NCBI GenBank assembly: GCA_015655125.1 | Contig: JAATFP010000109.1 | Coordinates: 1,798 to 65,797, forward strand | From: Chitinophagales bacterium | GTDB taxonomy: Bacteria; Bacteroidota; Bacteroidia; Chitinophagales; Chitinophagaceae | DNA: 64,000 nt | Reading direction: 5' to 3' | Shown here: piece after piece, positions 23,277 through 57,496 of the stretch | How positions within the stretch are numbered: position 1 is the first letter of the stretch | Layout: every line of letters starts with the position of its first letter | The notes under the pieces: generated by a model | Database searches by the model: none | The model's input: the letters and a program-made list of their open reading frames with translations, nothing else | What the model was told of the DNA's origin: nothing | Translations under genes and position numbers: made by a program

Positions 23277-23284
23277 CAAATGTA
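23277..23284 (-). promoter_or_regulatory. -7 element of purQ
   Basis: Minus strand TACATTTG, overlapping one end of the 53-bp palindrome. Confidence 0.6.
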
Positions 23285-23333
23285 CGATAAATGGGTTGAC
23301 ATCCCATTGGGATGTCAACCCATTTATCGTACA
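23281..23333. repeat. Perfect 53-bp palindrome (26-1-26)
   Basis: tgtacgataaatgggttgacatccca-t-tgggatgtcaacccatttatcgtaca. Confidence 0.95.
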
Positions 23334-24520: not shown

Positions 24521-26035
24521 TCAATTAAAATCGATCTTCGCAAATCCCACGAAATTCCGGAACAGGCACGGCACGATTACCTGCCTTGAACTTACCTGCT
24601 TAAGTAACCTCGGCATGAATGTATACCCTTTTTCGCCGCTCTTGATGGTCGCATAACGTTTTATTTCGCCATCCGGCTGGAGCGCAAAATCATTGATCAC
24701 CTGCTTGTTTTTGTCCACAAACAGGTAATGGATTTCGCTGCCCATATTGATCGTGGCGAAAGACAGGAAGTTGTCGGTTTCCACATCAGATTGCTTTTTA
24801 TTAATGATATTGCTCCACTTCATGGTAAGGTCTTTGCTGAAGTTGAATATCATCACGTCATTATAATTGTATACCATGTCGCGTTCTGTGTTGCGGAAAG
24901 GATCGTTCCAATAGTAGCTGTTATAATAACTGTTTCGTTGAAAGCGGTAATAGTAAGGAGAAGAATAATAATACGGATCATAATAAGAACGGTTCCATCG
25001 GTTATTGAAGCCGCGGTTCTGCGAATAAAAATCTTCCATCGTGATCAGCAATCCGCTGTCTTTTTTAAGTACGATGCTTTTAATATAAAAATTATTATAT
25101 GCTGCGCGCCAGTCGAGCGTGTTGGTAAGGCGGCTGCGCAAGCTGTCATCAAAAATATTGTATGCCCGTTGTTTTTCCTGCAGATCGTCTTTATTGAAAA
25201 CGGCCGTCAGCAAGCCTTCCACATTAGCAATATTTTTTTTGTAAACAAATGAATTGATGAAGATTAATTTATTCTGGTTATCGATCTTGAAATTTACATC
25301 CATGATCTTTTTTTCATCGAGCGGGATATCTTTCGTAAAAAAACCATCTGAATTCGGCTTATGATAAGCGATCTCCAGTTTACTGATATAATCGGAACGG
25401 TTCTTATTTGATTGGCGCGTGTAAAAAAATGTGCCTTCATTGTCAATCTCCAGATCGCCGTAGGTTTCCCGGCGATCATCATAATCAAATATATTCACTG
25501 TGCTGTCTGTTTTCCTAAGTTCCGAATTAAAAAGGGACGTAGACAGCGTGAGTTTATCATTTTTGCGCATCATCTTGTACAAAAGAATCTTTTGTTTGTC
25601 TTCGCTGTTGTTCAGATAATAGATCTTGTTGTCTGCCAGGAAGCTAATTTTCGCAGTATCAAGATACATTTCGTCGCCGATCATGTTGCCCGAACCATCC
25701 ATTTTTGCTGCGTTGCAATAAATGTAGTTTCCTTTTTGATATTGAAAAAAAACAAGGAAATAATCCGGGTAAGTGATGAAGTCGACATTGAAGGTTTTCT
25801 CAGAAATAAAATCCAGTTTAATCGTATTCTCCAGTACCATATCATTCGAATAAATGGCGAGCCGGTGTTTGCGGTTGATATTTTTATACACAAGATATTT
25901 TCCGCCAAAATTTCCCAATATCTCAAAATTCATATTGCGGTTATCTTCCCGAACGATATCAGAATAAGTGACTCGCTGAGCGAAAGAAGCTGCTGAAAGC
26001 ATAAGAAAAGTGGCAAAAAGAAAGATTCGTTTCAT
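24521..26035 (-). CDS. Secreted hypothetical protein, beta-rich, with a Tyr-rich insert
   Basis: Signal peptide ending SFA-Q; 504 aa; no recognised catalytic motif. Confidence 0.8.
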   Translation of the reverse strand: MKRIFLFATFLMLSAASFAQRVTYSDIVREDNRNMNFEILGNFGGKYLVYKNINRKHRLAIYSNDMVLENTIKLDFISEKTFNVDFITYPDYFLVFFQYQKGNYIYCNAAKMDGSGNMIGDEMYLDTAKISFLADNKIYYLNNSEDKQKILLYKMMRKNDKLTLSTSLFNSELRKTDSTVNIFDYDDRRETYGDLEIDNEGTFFYTRQSNKNRSDYISKLEIAYHKPNSDGFFTKDIPLDEKKIMDVNFKIDNQNKLIFINSFVYKKNIANVEGLLTAVFNKDDLQEKQRAYNIFDDSLRSRLTNTLDWRAAYNNFYIKSIVLKKDSGLLITMEDFYSQNRGFNNRWNRSYYDPYYYSSPYYYRFQRNSYYNSYYWNDPFRNTERDMVYNYNDVMIFNFSKDLTMKWSNIINKKQSDVETDNFLSFATINMGSEIHYLFVDKNKQVINDFALQPDGEIKRYATIKSGEKGYTFMPRLLKQVSSRQVIVPCLFRNFVGFAKIDFN

Positions 26036-31905: not shown

Positions 31906-32010
31906 AATTGAATATTCAAGGTTGATGGTTGAAAGTTAAGCCTTCAACTTTAAATAGCCAACTAACTTAACCATTGCTAATCCTGAACATTCAACCTTGA
32001 ACATTCAATT
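31906..32010. repeat. Heptamer arrays forming 20-bp inverted ends
   Basis: aattgaatattcaaggttga (31906-31925) vs tcaaccttgaacattcaatt (31991-32010), 19/20 complementary. Confidence 0.85.
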
Positions 32011-52864: not shown

Positions 52865-54877
52865 TCAGTATTTATAATCAGCTGCATCGGGTTCTTCTTC
52901 ATCATGATCATAGATGCGTGTCATTTTCAATTTACTTACAGGTGCCACAACAAGCGGGAATTTTTCTATCGCAACATTACTTTGTTCCAAACCAAATCCT
53001 TTTTCTTCGCTTACGCTTAATTCTTTCAGCCAGAAATAAATTTTCATGATCAGATGTTCGAAGAAAGGCAGTTCATTGTCCTGGCTAAGGAACTTTTCCA
53101 TCACGATAAACTGGAAGTCGCCACGCATGTTGTTGCGCTGCTGACTTTCATAACGGCTCATGATATTCACTTCGCGGTTTGCCACAAGATCTTCCACCAC
53201 TTTTTTGAACATGAGATTCAGTCGCGGCGCAATTCTGAAGCCCAGCCTGAATTCCACACGAATGATATCGTTTGGAATGATATGTTCCACGGAATATTCG
53301 CTTGTGTACGGATCATCCAAAGTATCCACATGTACGAACCAATAGATGTCCGCACGTTTGGGCTTGCCGCTTAAGATACTGTAGATGATCTTGTGTTCAA
53401 TTTCCTTCGGATTGTTGGCACTTGTTAAATAAACAAGATGCGTTGCATATTTAGGAACGGTAGTATCGTTGCTCAGTTCTTCCAGCTTCGGCACGTATTC
53501 TTCCACGCGGATAAATTCTACGTACCTGTTTTTGATCTTTCTTGCCCGATACCAAACGTACATCACGATAAACATGACGAAGCCGATGATCAGTGTGATA
53601 TACCCCCCATGTTTGAATTTATCCATTAATGCGATCAGGAACGCTCCTTCCACAACAAAATAAAGAATGAGGAAAATATAAATGAGCGCAGGACGAACGC
53701 GGTGTAATACAAGATAATTTGCGAACAAAATAGTGGTCATTACCATCGTGGTGATGATTGCCAGGCCATAAGCAGCCTCCATTCTGGATGATTCCCTGAA
53801 ATAGAGCACCACGCCTACGCAACCGAAAAACAGCATTGTGTTGATACCGGGAATATAAATTTGCCCCTTCGCTTCTGAAGGATAATTGATTTTCATTTTG
53901 GGCCAGAGGTTCAAACGGATGGCTTCGTTGATCAAAGAAAATGAACCCGTCACCATCGCCTGGCTGGCTATGATGGCCGCAGTGGTGGCAATGATGACCC
54001 CGGGAACGATGAACCATTCCGGCATCATATCATAAAATGCATTGATGCCACCCGCTTCTATAGCTGCGGCAGTCATGAGTTTTCCTGATTGGGTGTGAAG
54101 CAAACTCGCACCTTGTCCGAAATAATTTAGCAGCAAACAAATTTTTACAAACACCCACGACGTCCGGATATTGCCCCTGCCGCAATGCCCCAAATCGCTG
54201 TAAAGGGCTTCCGCGCCTGTGGTACAGAGAAATACGGCGCCAAGCAACCAGAACCCTTCTTTATAATTTACCAGGAAATGAATGGCATGATATGGATTAA
54301 ATGCCTGCAGTATTTTAAAATCATCGGAAATATGCACAAGTCCCAGCACGGCCAACATCAGGAACCATAGCGTCATCACGGGTCCAAACAAACGGCCAAT
54401 TCCATGGGTGCCAAATTGTTGTGAGAAAAAGAAAAGCGTGAGAATTCCTAATACGATATAAATAACGGTTTCCGTACCGATACTGTGAAATTGCGGAAGT
54501 TCTTTTAATCCTTCAATTGCCGATGTAATGGTTACGGGCGGAGTGATGATACCATCTGCGAGTAAGGCGGCGCCGCCGATCATAGCCGGGATCACCAGCC
54601 ACTTGCGCCGGCGACGAACCAATGCGAACAATGCAAAGATGCCACCTTCGCCGCGGTTGTCCGCACGAAGAACAAGTGTTACGTATTTTATGGTAGTTTG
54701 TAAAGTCAGTGTCCAGATGATGAGTGAAAGCGTTCCGAAGATGAGTTCTTCATTAACGACCCTGCCTTTTATAATGGAGTTAAAAACGTATAAAGGAGAA
54801 GTACCGATATCGCCGTAGATGATCCCTAATGCAACCAGCAAACCTACTGCAGTTACTTTATTAATGTGTTTTCCCAC
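52865..54877 (-). CDS. kup: KUP/HAK/KT potassium transporter
   Basis: GIIYGDIGTSPLY, ADNRGEGG, DGIITPPVT, GAEALYSDLGH, AYGLA. Start moved to GTG 54877; -7 box TACATTTG at 54923-54930. Confidence 0.96.
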   Translation of the reverse strand: MGKHINKVTAVGLLVALGIIYGDIGTSPLYVFNSIIKGRVVNEELIFGTLSLIIWTLTLQTTIKYVTLVLRADNRGEGGIFALFALVRRRRKWLVIPAMIGGAALLADGIITPPVTITSAIEGLKELPQFHSIGTETVIYIVLGILTLFFFSQQFGTHGIGRLFGPVMTLWFLMLAVLGLVHISDDFKILQAFNPYHAIHFLVNYKEGFWLLGAVFLCTTGAEALYSDLGHCGRGNIRTSWVFVKICLLLNYFGQGASLLHTQSGKLMTAAAIEAGGINAFYDMMPEWFIVPGVIIATTAAIIASQAMVTGSFSLINEAIRLNLWPKMKINYPSEAKGQIYIPGINTMLFFGCVGVVLYFRESSRMEAAYGLAIITTMVMTTILFANYLVLHRVRPALIYIFLILYFVVEGAFLIALMDKFKHGGYITLIIGFVMFIVMYVWYRARKIKNRYVEFIRVEEYVPKLEELSNDTTVPKYATHLVYLTSANNPKEIEHKIIYSILSGKPKRADIYWFVHVDTLDDPYTSEYSVEHIIPNDIIRVEFRLGFRIAPRLNLMFKKVVEDLVANREVNIMSRYESQQRNNMRGDFQFIVMEKFLSQDNELPFFEHLIMKIYFWLKELSVSEEKGFGLEQSNVAIEKFPLVVAPVSKLKMTRIYDHDEEEPDAADYKY

Positions 54878-54959
54878 GAAAAAATATTTTCTGTAATTGC
54901 CTTGATTTGTGTAAAGGCTACACAAATGTAAATTGAAAATTAATACAGGAAGGAAGTAT

Positions 54960-55026
54960 TTTGGGTTGTCAACCTATCCGGTTGACCTCCCAACCGGTTG
55001 TCAACCGGATAGGTTGACAACCCAAA
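54960..55026. repeat. 27-bp inverted repeat built from four GGTTGWCAACC units at 16-bp period
   Basis: Arms 54960-54986 and 55000-55026; units start at 54964, 54980, 54996, 55012. Confidence 0.9.
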
Positions 55027-55123: not shown

Positions 55124-57496
55124 ATGCCAAAATATTGCTTCATGTTGATGGCTTTTTTATACGCTATGAATACCTCGGCGCAGCAAAAGCTCACAGTTGA
55201 AAAGATCATGCGCGATCCAAAATGGATCGGCACTTCGCCATCGAACGCTTTTTGGGATAAAGACGGCAACACACTGTTTTTTTCATGGAACCCGGAAAAT
55301 ACCATTTCAGATTCTCTTTATTTCATCACTAAAAACAATCCGGCACCTTTAAAAGCTTCTATAAACCAGAAGCAGGAATTAATGGATGCTGACAACCTGG
55401 TTTACAACCCTGCACGAACCGCTTATGTATATGCAAAGGATGCCGACATATTTTATACGGATATGAAATCGAAGCGTACAAAACGCATTACAAAAACAAA
55501 TGACTTTGAATTCAATCCCGTTTTTAGTTTTGGCGCAACGAAAGTTGTTTATACCCGCAGTCAGAATCTATATGCATGGGACATTTCCAGTGGCGAAACG
55601 ACGCAACTTACCAATATTCGCAACGAAGTAAATGTAACGGGCGGCCGGGGAAATCGCTCTGTCATCAATACCCAGGAAGATTGGCTGAAGAACGATCAAC
55701 TGAAATATTTTGAAGTGTTGCGCTGGCGAAAAGAAAAAAGAGATGCCGCAGATGAGTATATAAAAAACACCAAACAAAAAGAATTGCGCGTCACCGCATT
55801 GGAAGACAAAAACCTGCAGGCCTTGAACATTAGTCCCGACGGTCGTTTCATCACCTATCGCTTGTCAAAGCCGGGCAATAGCAAAGCAACCATCATCCCC
55901 GACTATGTAACAGAAAATGGTTTCACAAATGATATAAACGGCCGAACAAAAGTAGGTGCCATACAAACATCTTCGGATTTTTTTGTGTACGATCGTATTG
56001 CCGATAGTGTGTATGAGGTGAAAACCGACTCCATTCCGGGTATTAAAGACATTCCCGAATTTGTAAAAGATTATCCGAAACAATTTGACGCACGGACCAA
56101 AAGCGCCGCAAAAAGAAATGTCACTTTCTTTGGTCCTTCCTGGTCGCCGGATGGAAAATATGCATTGCTTGATATCCGCGCAGAGGATAATAAAGACAGG
56201 TGGCTGATGTTGTGGGATACTGCTTCCAAACAATTGAAAACCGTCGATCGCCAGCACGATGACGCCTGGATAGCCGGCCCCGGTATAAATACCGGAAACA
56301 CCGGCTGGATAGATAACACGCATTGCTGGTTCCAATCTGAAGCAACCGGTTATTCGCATCTATATGTATATTGTGCGGTTACAAACGTTTCGCATCCGAT
56401 TACAAACGGAAAATACGAGGTGCAGTCTGCACAACTTTCTGCGGATAAAAAATATTTTTATATCGTTACCAATGAAGTTCATCCGGGAGAGCAGCAGTTG
56501 TATCGGCTATCAATTGCCGATGGCAGAAAAGAACGCATCACATCGATGACGGGTGCCAACCAGGTATATATTTCACCCGATGAAACGCAGGTAGCTATCA
56601 TTTATTCGTACTCCAACAAGCCCTGGGAACTATATTTACAGCAAAATAAACCAGGCGCCGTTGCAAAGCAGGTAACTAACAAAGCACAAAGCGATGAGTT
56701 TAAAAACTATGCCTTCAAAGAACCGGAACTGGTAACATTTACGGCAAGGGATGGTGCAACAGTCTATGCACGATTATACAAGCCTGATCGCCCGGATCCG
56801 GCAAAACCGGCTGTTCTATTTGTGCATGGTGCAGGTTATCTTCAAAATGCCCATAAATGGTGGAGCAGCTATTTCCGGGAATATATGTTCAATAACATGC
56901 TGGCGCAAAACGGGTATTATGTGATGGATGTCGACTACCGCGCAAGTTCAGGTTATGGCCGTGGGTGGCGGACCGGCATTTACAGGCACATGGGCGGAAA
57001 AGATCTTTCTGACAATGTAGATGCCGCAAATTTCCTGGTAAAAAATTACAGTGTTGATCCGAAACACATTGGCTTGTACGGCGGTTCTTATGGCGGCTTT
57101 ATTACATTAATGGCATTGTTTACCGCACCGGATGTATTCGCATCGGGTGCAGCTTTGCGCCCGGTGACGGATTGGGCAAACTATAATCACGGTTATACAT
57201 CAAATATCCTGAATGAGCCGGCAACAGATAGCCTTGCCTATAGAAGAAGCTCTCCATTTTATTTCGCAGAAGGCTTAAAAGGAAATCTGTTGATCTGCCA
57301 TGGAATGGTAGATGTAAATGTACATTTCCAGGATGCAGTAAAATTAAGTCAGCGTTTAATAGAATTAGGAAAAGACAATTGGGAACTCGCTGCCTACCCA
57401 ATGGAAGATCACGGATTTGTAGAGCCGAGCAGCTGGACAGATGAATACAAACGTATTTTTAAATTATTTGAAACCACTTTAAAAACGAAGCACTGA
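55124..57496 (+). CDS. S9 family peptidase (DPP IV / prolyl oligopeptidase-like)
   Basis: Signal peptide, propeller repeats, FVHGAGY, GGSYGG, HGMVDVNV, EDHGF. Start moved to ATG 55124. Confidence 0.93.
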   Translation: MPKYCFMLMAFLYAMNTSAQQKLTVEKIMRDPKWIGTSPSNAFWDKDGNTLFFSWNPENTISDSLYFITKNNPAPLKASINQKQELMDADNLVYNPARTAYVYAKDADIFYTDMKSKRTKRITKTNDFEFNPVFSFGATKVVYTRSQNLYAWDISSGETTQLTNIRNEVNVTGGRGNRSVINTQEDWLKNDQLKYFEVLRWRKEKRDAADEYIKNTKQKELRVTALEDKNLQALNISPDGRFITYRLSKPGNSKATIIPDYVTENGFTNDINGRTKVGAIQTSSDFFVYDRIADSVYEVKTDSIPGIKDIPEFVKDYPKQFDARTKSAAKRNVTFFGPSWSPDGKYALLDIRAEDNKDRWLMLWDTASKQLKTVDRQHDDAWIAGPGINTGNTGWIDNTHCWFQSEATGYSHLYVYCAVTNVSHPITNGKYEVQSAQLSADKKYFYIVTNEVHPGEQQLYRLSIADGRKERITSMTGANQVYISPDETQVAIIYSYSNKPWELYLQQNKPGAVAKQVTNKAQSDEFKNYAFKEPELVTFTARDGATVYARLYKPDRPDPAKPAVLFVHGAGYLQNAHKWWSSYFREYMFNNMLAQNGYYVMDVDYRASSGYGRGWRTGIYRHMGGKDLSDNVDAANFLVKNYSVDPKHIGLYGGSYGGFITLMALFTAPDVFASGAALRPVTDWANYNHGYTSNILNEPATDSLAYRRSSPFYFAEGLKGNLLICHGMVDVNVHFQDAVKLSQRLIELGKDNWELAAYPMEDHGFVEPSSWTDEYKRIFKLFETTLKTKH

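Follow-up and report, generated by a model that had tools for sequence, protein, structure and literature searches.

The DNA analysed here is a window of 64,000 nucleotides (contig C89, positions 1798-65797) of a draft genome of 3.75 Mb in 116 contigs, with 43% GC. Within this window, the gap between the divergent genes kup and an S9 family peptidase gene contains a 67-bp element made of four 11-nt units (Table 1). Its letters read TTTGGGTTGTCAACCTATCCGGTTGAC-CTCCCAACCGGTT-GTCAACCGGATAGGTTGACAACCCAAA, and it forms a perfect inverted repeat of 27 nt around a non-complementary centre of 13 nt. The initial annotation had described four units at an exact 16-bp period and a perfect inverted repeat, and a repeat finder recovered both: start-to-start spacings of 16, 16 and 16 bp, and two arms of 27 nt (54960-54986 and 55000-55026), 13 nt apart and 100% complementary. 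The neighbouring genes had also been named correctly, since the N-terminus of the Kup product reads GDIGTSPLY, the peptidase carries the domains given in Table 1 and PurQ, encoded elsewhere in the window, carries a GATase_5 domain (Pfam). The element precedes the kup -7 box by about 30 bp, and 97 bp separate it from the start codon of the peptidase gene.

With one mismatch at most, GGTTGWCAACC was found seven times in the window, compared with 0.75 expected, and none of 100 shuffles reached seven. The hairpin predicted for the kup/S9 element has a folding energy of -55 kcal/mol as RNA (z = -11.6) and of -35 kcal/mol as DNA (z = -10.9). In Rfam it had no match at the gathering score, only sub-threshold matches to hairpin-shaped families (miRNA precursors). 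A reading of the element as an intrinsic terminator was rejected, as the genes on either side diverge and the sequence after the hairpin, TAAATTACC, has no T-run; T-runs are present after a few other copies (C36 and C95).

The palindrome upstream of purQ contains a second copy of the same repeat. As had been proposed, it includes two units of the kup/S9 type, 16 bp apart (starting at 23294 and 23310). The palindrome itself has perfect arms of 26 nt (23281-23306 and 23308-23333): one arm contains the last codons and the stop codon of the upstream gene, and the other abuts the -7 box of purQ. It had also been noted that a minus-strand TACATTTG lies downstream of both palindromes, and this was confirmed (54923-30 and 23277-84). 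At both loci this octamer is simply the common Bacteroidota -7 box: TANNTTTG is present within 150 bp upstream of 682 of the 2903 ORFs, and the exact octamer TACATTTG upstream of 48. The window holds another hairpin element at 31906-32010, with the 7-mers GGTTGAT and GGTTGAA in its arms, which belongs to a different repeat class; several kinds of small intergenic hairpin insert are present in this genome.

Table 1. Coordinates of the repeat copies, their units and the associated genes (window positions, unless a contig is given)
Feature	Position	Strand	Remarks
Second family copy in the window (purQ)	23281..23333	.	inverted unit pair, 23294-304 and 23310-320
kup (potassium uptake)	52865..54877	-	probable GTG start at 54877; neighbour, outside the element
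TACATTTG, -7-type promoter box of kup	54923..54930	-	30 bp from the element; ordinary promoter element
Dispersed repeat copy, 67 bp	54960..55026	.	four 11-nt units, 16-bp period
Unit 1	54964..54974	.	GGTTGTCAACC
Unit 2	54980..54990	.	GGTTGACCTCC; degenerate, 2 mismatches to GGWTGWCAWCC
Unit 3	54996..55006	.	GGTTGTCAACC
Unit 4	55012..55022	.	GGTTGACAACC
S9 family peptidase gene	55124..57496	+	Peptidase_S9 and DPPIV_N domains; neighbour, outside the element
RAYT-like gene, 217 aa	C65:25182-25835	-	bracketed by family-1 arrays; outside the window
44% identical paralogue of the C65 gene	C20:32574-33191	-	GGTAGACTACC-7-GGTAGTCTACC 87 bp upstream (C20:33278-33306)

The repeat is dispersed over the whole genome, and the draft state of the assembly makes all repeat counts lower bounds. 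Exact GGTTGWCAACC occurs 27 times, against about 1.4 occurrences by chance as estimated from base composition, and the exact pattern of two units with a 5-nt spacer (11-5-11) occurs at 22 sites, the reversed control pattern at none. When up to two mismatches were allowed, the distances between units showed a single sharp maximum at 16 bp, formed by 34 pairs, accompanied by harmonics at 32 and 48 bp and by a minor peak at 14. The cluster listing shows that the true unit of this family, called family 1 here, is GGWTGWCAWCC. Its commonest form is GGTTGACATCC or the complementary GGATGTCAACC, as a rule preceded by tg and followed by c(a). Units are usually separated by 5-nt spacers and form arrays of 1-5 units, direct or inverted; a looser scan gave about 26 multi-unit arrays (2-5 units) in both arrangements, with 66 units in total. 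The four units at C65:25115 are all separated by tacag, and the five units at C116:107187 by cttcg; such identity of spacers throughout an array indicates tandem duplication. The array at C5:9593 is a four-unit palindrome resembling the kup/S9 element. Direct arrays have perfect arms of at most 7 nt, folding being limited to inverted pairs.

The position of the arrays relative to genes was determined from crude greedy ORF calls on the draft contigs. Setting aside the array of contig C1, which lies at the 5' end of such a crude ORF call, no multi-unit array was located inside an ORF of at least 100 aa (P ~2e-22 for a coding fraction of 85%). Six arrays lie in divergent, five in convergent and 13 in tandem gaps, and two at contig ends; 6.5 divergent, 3.8 convergent and 13.7 tandem locations are expected from the number of intergenic base pairs (chi-square p = 0.79). 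For four of the five convergent pairs, the flanking ORFs were scanned against Pfam, and five of these eight ORFs matched a family above the cut-off. Both flanks matched in one pair, formed by ATP synthase OSCP and an M36 peptidase; the other matches were a LigB dioxygenase, a menaquinone VitK2_biosynth protein and a DHOR di-haem oxidoreductase, and the remaining three ORFs had a sub-threshold Pfam match or none. The genes beside arrays have no common function in the Pfam scan. As array contexts match the intergenic background, copies are scattered without regard to promoters, the distribution that the initial annotation had named as evidence against an operator.

We searched for the 11-5-11 motif in 40 relatives, of which 24 are congeners and 16 come from elsewhere in the order, and found it in none of them. 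Among 185,579 genomes, one per species, it was present in only 24 stretches. Five of these stretches come from a single Dehalococcoidia MAG, where they are copies of one longer repeat, and GC-rich soil lineages account for several others. In the Dehalococcoidia MAG (CBDCPI01; L022, L025, L033, L037, L041) the direct pair GGATGACAACCcgtgtGGATGACAACC is found in five repeat copies whose flanks are identical over at least 120 bp; the longer repeat is probably the end of a multi-copy element. Arrays of the 11-nt family unit with a 16-bp period were seen in three Gemmatimonadaceae MAGs (L023, L036, L045), in an Acidobacteriaceae (L024) and a Cytophagales (L026) genome and in metagenome contigs (L092-L095). 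In the unrelated GC-rich soil lineages the arrays consist, for example, of GGATGACAACCgcgcg three times or GGTTGTCATCCtgcca five times, often beside sequence of the ...GAGATCCCTCGCTCCGCTCGGGATGAC type, and no RAYT or TIRYT gene was found near them within these short loci. A metagenome scan for three-unit arrays returned four contigs, all from GC-rich organisms, and none of these short contigs carries a homologue of the C65 protein described below. The left flank of the kup/S9 element, searched in metagenomes as the signature of an empty site in a close strain, gave no match.

Conservation upstream of kup and purQ orthologues, which had been suggested as a check of the operator reading, was not observed in the congeners where the gaps could be compared. 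Congeners are at most 76% identical to this genome at the DNA level in kup, and at most 80% in the purQ region. The kup/S9 gap of G073 lacks the element and is shorter by about 70 bp, and the conserved left flank AAGGAARTATTTT stops exactly at the edge of the element. In G061, G074 and G071, the purQ gap contains no units, but both the ancestral -7 box, TATTTTTG, and the upstream gene's end, ...YFVR*, are present. The motif being missing from relatives and from syntenic gaps, a conserved regulon is excluded. In two other congeners, the purQ gap has received other, unrelated insertions (G009, L083, G009:C427; G055, L091, G055:C3, ~65762-66478), which in G055 consist of tandem repeats of the GAATATCGAATGT type. 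Different small repeats seem to have landed repeatedly in the gap upstream of purQ.

On contig C65, family-1 arrays bracket a gene encoding a RAYT-like protein of 217 aa. The gene's 3' end is 8 bp away from four direct units, and its start is preceded by an inverted pair at a distance of 70 bp. The gene was recognised only through these two arrays. On the other side of the four-unit array, an ORF similar to 3-hydroxyacyl-CoA dehydrogenase (C65:24222-25136) overlaps the array by 22 bp (25115-25136), and the repeat units supply its last residues, ...RDDNLQG*, and its stop codon.

The C65 protein had no match in Pfam. In NCBIfam it matched NF047646, REP_Tyr_transpos ('REP-associated tyrosine transposase'), with E = 7e-8 and 32 bits, for a cut-off of 80 bits. 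A library-wide phmmer search with the C65 protein returned 6992 cluster representatives with E <= 1e-3. Among the homologues, one carries the JGI label RayT, and the closest named one is from Ferruginibacter sp. In an alignment of 40 sequences, H62 and H64 (HUH) and N156 are invariant, and N61, Y152 and H154 nearly invariant; these residues make up the HUH motif and a YxHxN(P) tyrosine motif, and the C65 protein itself reads YIHANE at the latter, not NP. A profile made from the 40 sequences had its best PDB match in 4ER8, E. coli TnpA_REP, with E = 1e-5 and both motifs aligned; the profile was needed for this, as a single-sequence phmmer search of the PDB with the C65 protein found nothing. 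The AF2 model of the protein has a pLDDT of 94 and a pTM of 0.90, and its top Foldseek match was again 4ER8 (E = 1e-5, TM 0.63 normalised by target length). Ranks 2-10 were occupied by chains of Thg1-like tRNA(His) guanylyltransferase, followed by the TnpA proteins of IS608, IS200 and ISDra2.

A search of the genome with Pfam Y1_Tnp (PF01797) found only C114:5527-6027 (+), with 21 bits; NCBIfam REP_Tyr_transpos gave 81.8 bits for the same ORF. This gene (L006:1435-1938) is a canonical RAYT with the motifs SNHIHLIWQ and YIHQNPVKAG, in the subclass 2.6 style typical of Bacteroidota. It was rejected as a partner of family 1, as no family-1 units are present within 1.5 kb of it.

Homologues of the C65 protein were found in 73 of 121 congeners, in 1-6 copies per genome and with at most 44% identity. 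We examined 34 homologue loci, 29 of them from congeners, and in 31 the two flanks share a 10-mer or longer word, the unit differing from locus to locus; mismatched pairs of loci share such a word in 27% of cases, a figure inflated by the related units of some loci. Flanking units include GGTAGTCAACC, present as 9 plus 4 units with a 14-bp period, and GAGATGTCAACT, with a period of 15-16 bp. Other loci carry the pairs GGTCGACCACC-7-GGTGGTCGACC and GGTTGACAACC-7-GGTTGTCAACC, the units AGGTGACACCTT or AAAGTTTACACC, each with its complement, or a four-unit palindrome of GGGTAGTCTTCTC. The hairpin GGTGACACC...GGTGTCACC was found in only 11 of the 121 genomes; it flanks or adjoins a homologue in five of them (G017, G023, G045, G068 and G073), and is present in 13 copies on 12 contigs in G065.

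The genome under study also encodes a paralogue of the C65 protein, on contig C20, with its own unit pair upstream (Table 1). The corresponding repeats, family 2 (aaaGGTWGWCWACCttt), occupy about 10 intergenic loci, for example C22:79849, C40:48465/48548 and C91:16839. Hybrid units such as GGTTGACTACC link family 2 to family 1. A low-copy Y1 gene flanked by its own dispersed repeat is the pattern that defines a REPtron, and the source of the family-1 repeats appears to be the transposase-like gene that lies between them.

Classical REP units are imperfect palindromes of 20-40 nt, with a guide tetranucleotide, GTAG (or CGTC), at the foot of each hairpin. The present system shares with the REP/BIME-RAYT and REPIN systems of Proteobacteria (E. 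coli TnpA_REP, Pseudomonas REPINs) palindromic, intergenic, lineage-specific repeats whose inverted doublets form hairpins, and a low-copy Y1 gene placed between cognate repeats and co-varying with them. It also shares the HUH motif, the catalytic tyrosine in Y...NP and the fold of TnpA_REP, 4ER8 being the best match by profile as well as by structure. It differs from them in the number of copies, tens instead of hundreds, in the frequent direct-repeat arrays and in the length of the unit, 11 nt, which does not allow a single unit to form a REP-like hairpin. Family-1 units start GGTTG or GGATG and lack the GTAG guide, whereas family-2 units and the units beside the closest homologues in congeners start GGTAG. 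The similarity of the C65 protein to canonical RAYTs is weak, as indicated by the NCBIfam score of 32 bits. With the TnpA proteins of IS200/IS605 the C65 protein has in common the HUH-Y1 fold and, presumably, hairpin recognition on single-stranded DNA; unlike these elements, the gene is present in one copy plus a 44% identical paralogue, with neither IS ends nor tnpB, and the repeats spread without it.

Among RAYT-related proteins, subclass 2.1 of TnpA_Y1 is characterized by the signatures NH[YF]H, FQ and Y[IV]HLNP and a length of 238 aa (Quentin et al., 2018; PMC6006769). The consensus of the family studied here reads NHFH, LFxRPF (FQ in place of WQ) and YIHANP, for about 217-220 aa, and by these motifs it probably belongs to subclass 2.1, which is group 1 of Bertels et al. 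(2017; PMC5581495). In Bacteroidota, subclass 2.6 has been associated with 'atypical' structures (PMC6006769, PMC5581495). Subclass 2.1 genes were reported to have no REP-like sequence beside them and were equated with TIRYTs (PMC6006769; PMC3733652), and only modest repeat abundance was found around group 1 RAYTs (PMC5581495); in contrast, flanking units were present here at 31 of 34 loci. TIRYTs are RAYT-like genes located between inverted repeats, often carrying GGGGWSAS, which form 'moderately abundant families ... in dimers or clusters' (Di Nocera et al., 2013; PMC3733652). The present system resembles them in its RAYT-like HUH-Y1 gene flanked by non-GTAG repeats, and in the moderate abundance of these repeats as singles, dimers and clusters. 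GGGTTGAC, GGGATGAC and GAGGTGAC each match the TIR motif GGGGWSAS at 7 of 8 positions, the comparison being with the published consensus. The differences are the architecture, with units of 11-14 nt in tandem or inverted arrangement and a period of 14-18 bp in place of long TIRs, and the host, a Bacteroidota. In conclusion, this is a system of the REPtron/TIRtron type, a kind already known, with a repeat architecture that is unusually regular and made of short units.

With the family, its distribution, the empty orthologous sites and the flanked gene with its motifs and its fold established, we consider it probable that the kup/S9 element is one dispersed copy of a lineage-specific intergenic repeat family, cognate to the divergent RAYT/TIRYT-like HUH-Y1 protein of C65, which would have mobilised it by a single-strand mechanism. 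The biochemistry of TnpA_REP and of IS608 is established for those enzymes. By analogy with IS200/IS605 and TnpA_REP, the C65 protein would recognise the units on single-stranded DNA, inverted pairs folding into hairpins; as TnpA_REP and IS608 do, it would then cut beside the units through a 5'-phosphotyrosine intermediate and rejoin them elsewhere. Rejoining would seed new copies in intergenic DNA, and slippage would let arrays grow in 16-bp steps, which would account for the identical spacers. The copy between kup and the peptidase gene would be an insertion that took place in this lineage. The mobility of the repeats is suggested by their distribution, and the C65 gene is linked to the units by association, so that another factor might spread them in place of its protein. 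The kup/S9 copy is most likely a passenger without a dedicated regulatory role, possibly with some effect on either promoter.

Of the two readings offered by the initial annotation, a small palindromic mobile repeat agrees with the RAYT-like gene flanked by family arrays and with homologues that have their own cognate units. The other reading, a multimeric operator common to kup and purQ, is very unlikely. It would have a species-specific regulator bind GGWTGWCAWCC arrays and co-regulate kup, purQ and about 25 other loci; the quasi-palindromic 11-mers would suit dimer sites, several arrays are in gaps that contain promoters (6 divergent, 13 tandem), and the purQ palindrome abuts a -7 box. However, five arrays lie between convergent genes in a distribution that equals the background, neither the 40 relatives nor the orthologous regions of kup and purQ contain the motif, neighbouring genes have no function in common, and a transposase-like gene is flanked by arrays. 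The number and orientation of units are freely variable, and the period takes values of 14, 15, 16 or 18 bp in other copies and in related systems. The varying period argues against the need for a fixed helical phase and weakens the proposal that a 16-bp period places successive dimers on alternate faces of the helix; the suggested link to nucleotide second messengers received no support.

Terminator, mRNA-stabilising, nucleoid-protein and gyrase-site functions have been proposed for REP/BIME sequences of E. coli. Elements spread by the RAYT-like protein could likewise have been domesticated, and now be kept for one of these structural or RNA functions. Inverted pairs form very stable hairpins, many copies are found right after stop codons in tandem or convergent gaps, a few of them (C36, C95) precede T-runs, and, in agreement with the domestication model (PMC5581495), RAYT-like genes are found widely in the genus at low copy number. 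We nevertheless regard domestication as improbable, because the kup/S9 element lies between divergent promoters with no T-run, direct-repeat arrays are unable to form hairpins, and the elements are not conserved at orthologous sites. An independent local origin, in which slippage or template switching at each locus would have amplified chance seeds with no mobilising enzyme, would fit the tandem duplication evidenced by identical spacers (four units with tacag on C65, five with cttcg on C116), and also the perfect locus-specific extensions of some palindromes, which point to templated copying. This origin is hardly credible, as it requires the same 11-mer to have arisen at about 26 unlinked loci in a single species but never in 40 relatives, and also to have come to lie on both sides of the RAYT-like gene, a pattern that recurs at 31 of the 34 loci of homologues.

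The unit resembles a tRNA T-arm or anticodon loop, and also HincII and FokI sites, which was set aside as a coincidence of the WTGWCAW core. Identification as parS, matS or a DNA uptake sequence was also rejected, the motif being species-specific, low-copy and arrayed.

In six of 14 inverted arrays, the perfect palindrome reaches at least 5 bp past the units, into locus-specific DNA. It is extended by 13 bp at purQ (23281-23333), by 13 bp at C116:111659 (C116:111646-111698) and by 19 bp at C20:38901 (C20:38882-38946). Of the two arms at purQ, the distal one corresponds to the ancestral end of the upstream gene, and congeners have no counterpart of the proximal one; inverted copying of the flank thus seems to have occurred, and comparison of the sequences suggests that this took place after or during insertion. 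Insertion of the repeat into a pre-existing terminator hairpin was rejected for this locus, since the proximal arm is missing from the orthologous regions, and the distal one is made up of ...YFVR*, the ancestral coding end. Locus-specific extensions are predicted neither by target-site duplication nor by the known RAYT/IS200 (Y1) pathway. Our guesses are that palindromes could be extended through template switching at the hairpin, or through cross-strand rejoining.

These observations can be combined into a broader proposal, which we put forward tentatively and consider rather doubtful as a whole. A large and so far poorly characterised RAYT-like clade, with 6992 cluster representatives and present in most genomes of the genus, would have a distinct repeat architecture, made of arrays of quasi-palindromic units of 11-14 nt with a period of 14-18 nt, co-varying with the protein. 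Once inserted, inverted pairs would grow locus-specific perfect palindromes by inverted copying of their flanks; at purQ, this would have extended to the last codons of a gene. If true, this architecture would represent a new repeat type for Y1 enzymes, and the growth of palindromes a new route to bacterial intergenic palindromes and to promoter-proximal hairpins.

For the locus studied here, the two conspicuous palindromes of the window belong to one repeat family, and this removes a regulatory connection of potassium uptake with purine synthesis that was tempting but false. The pairing of a Y1 transposase-like gene with its cognate repeat is documented in a genus of Bacteroidota, for a clade that had been surveyed as lacking REPs or as having only 'TIRs'. 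The locus-specific outgrowth of palindromes raises a small mechanistic question, and the many pairs of protein and unit provide a natural data set on how such enzymes read their DNA targets.
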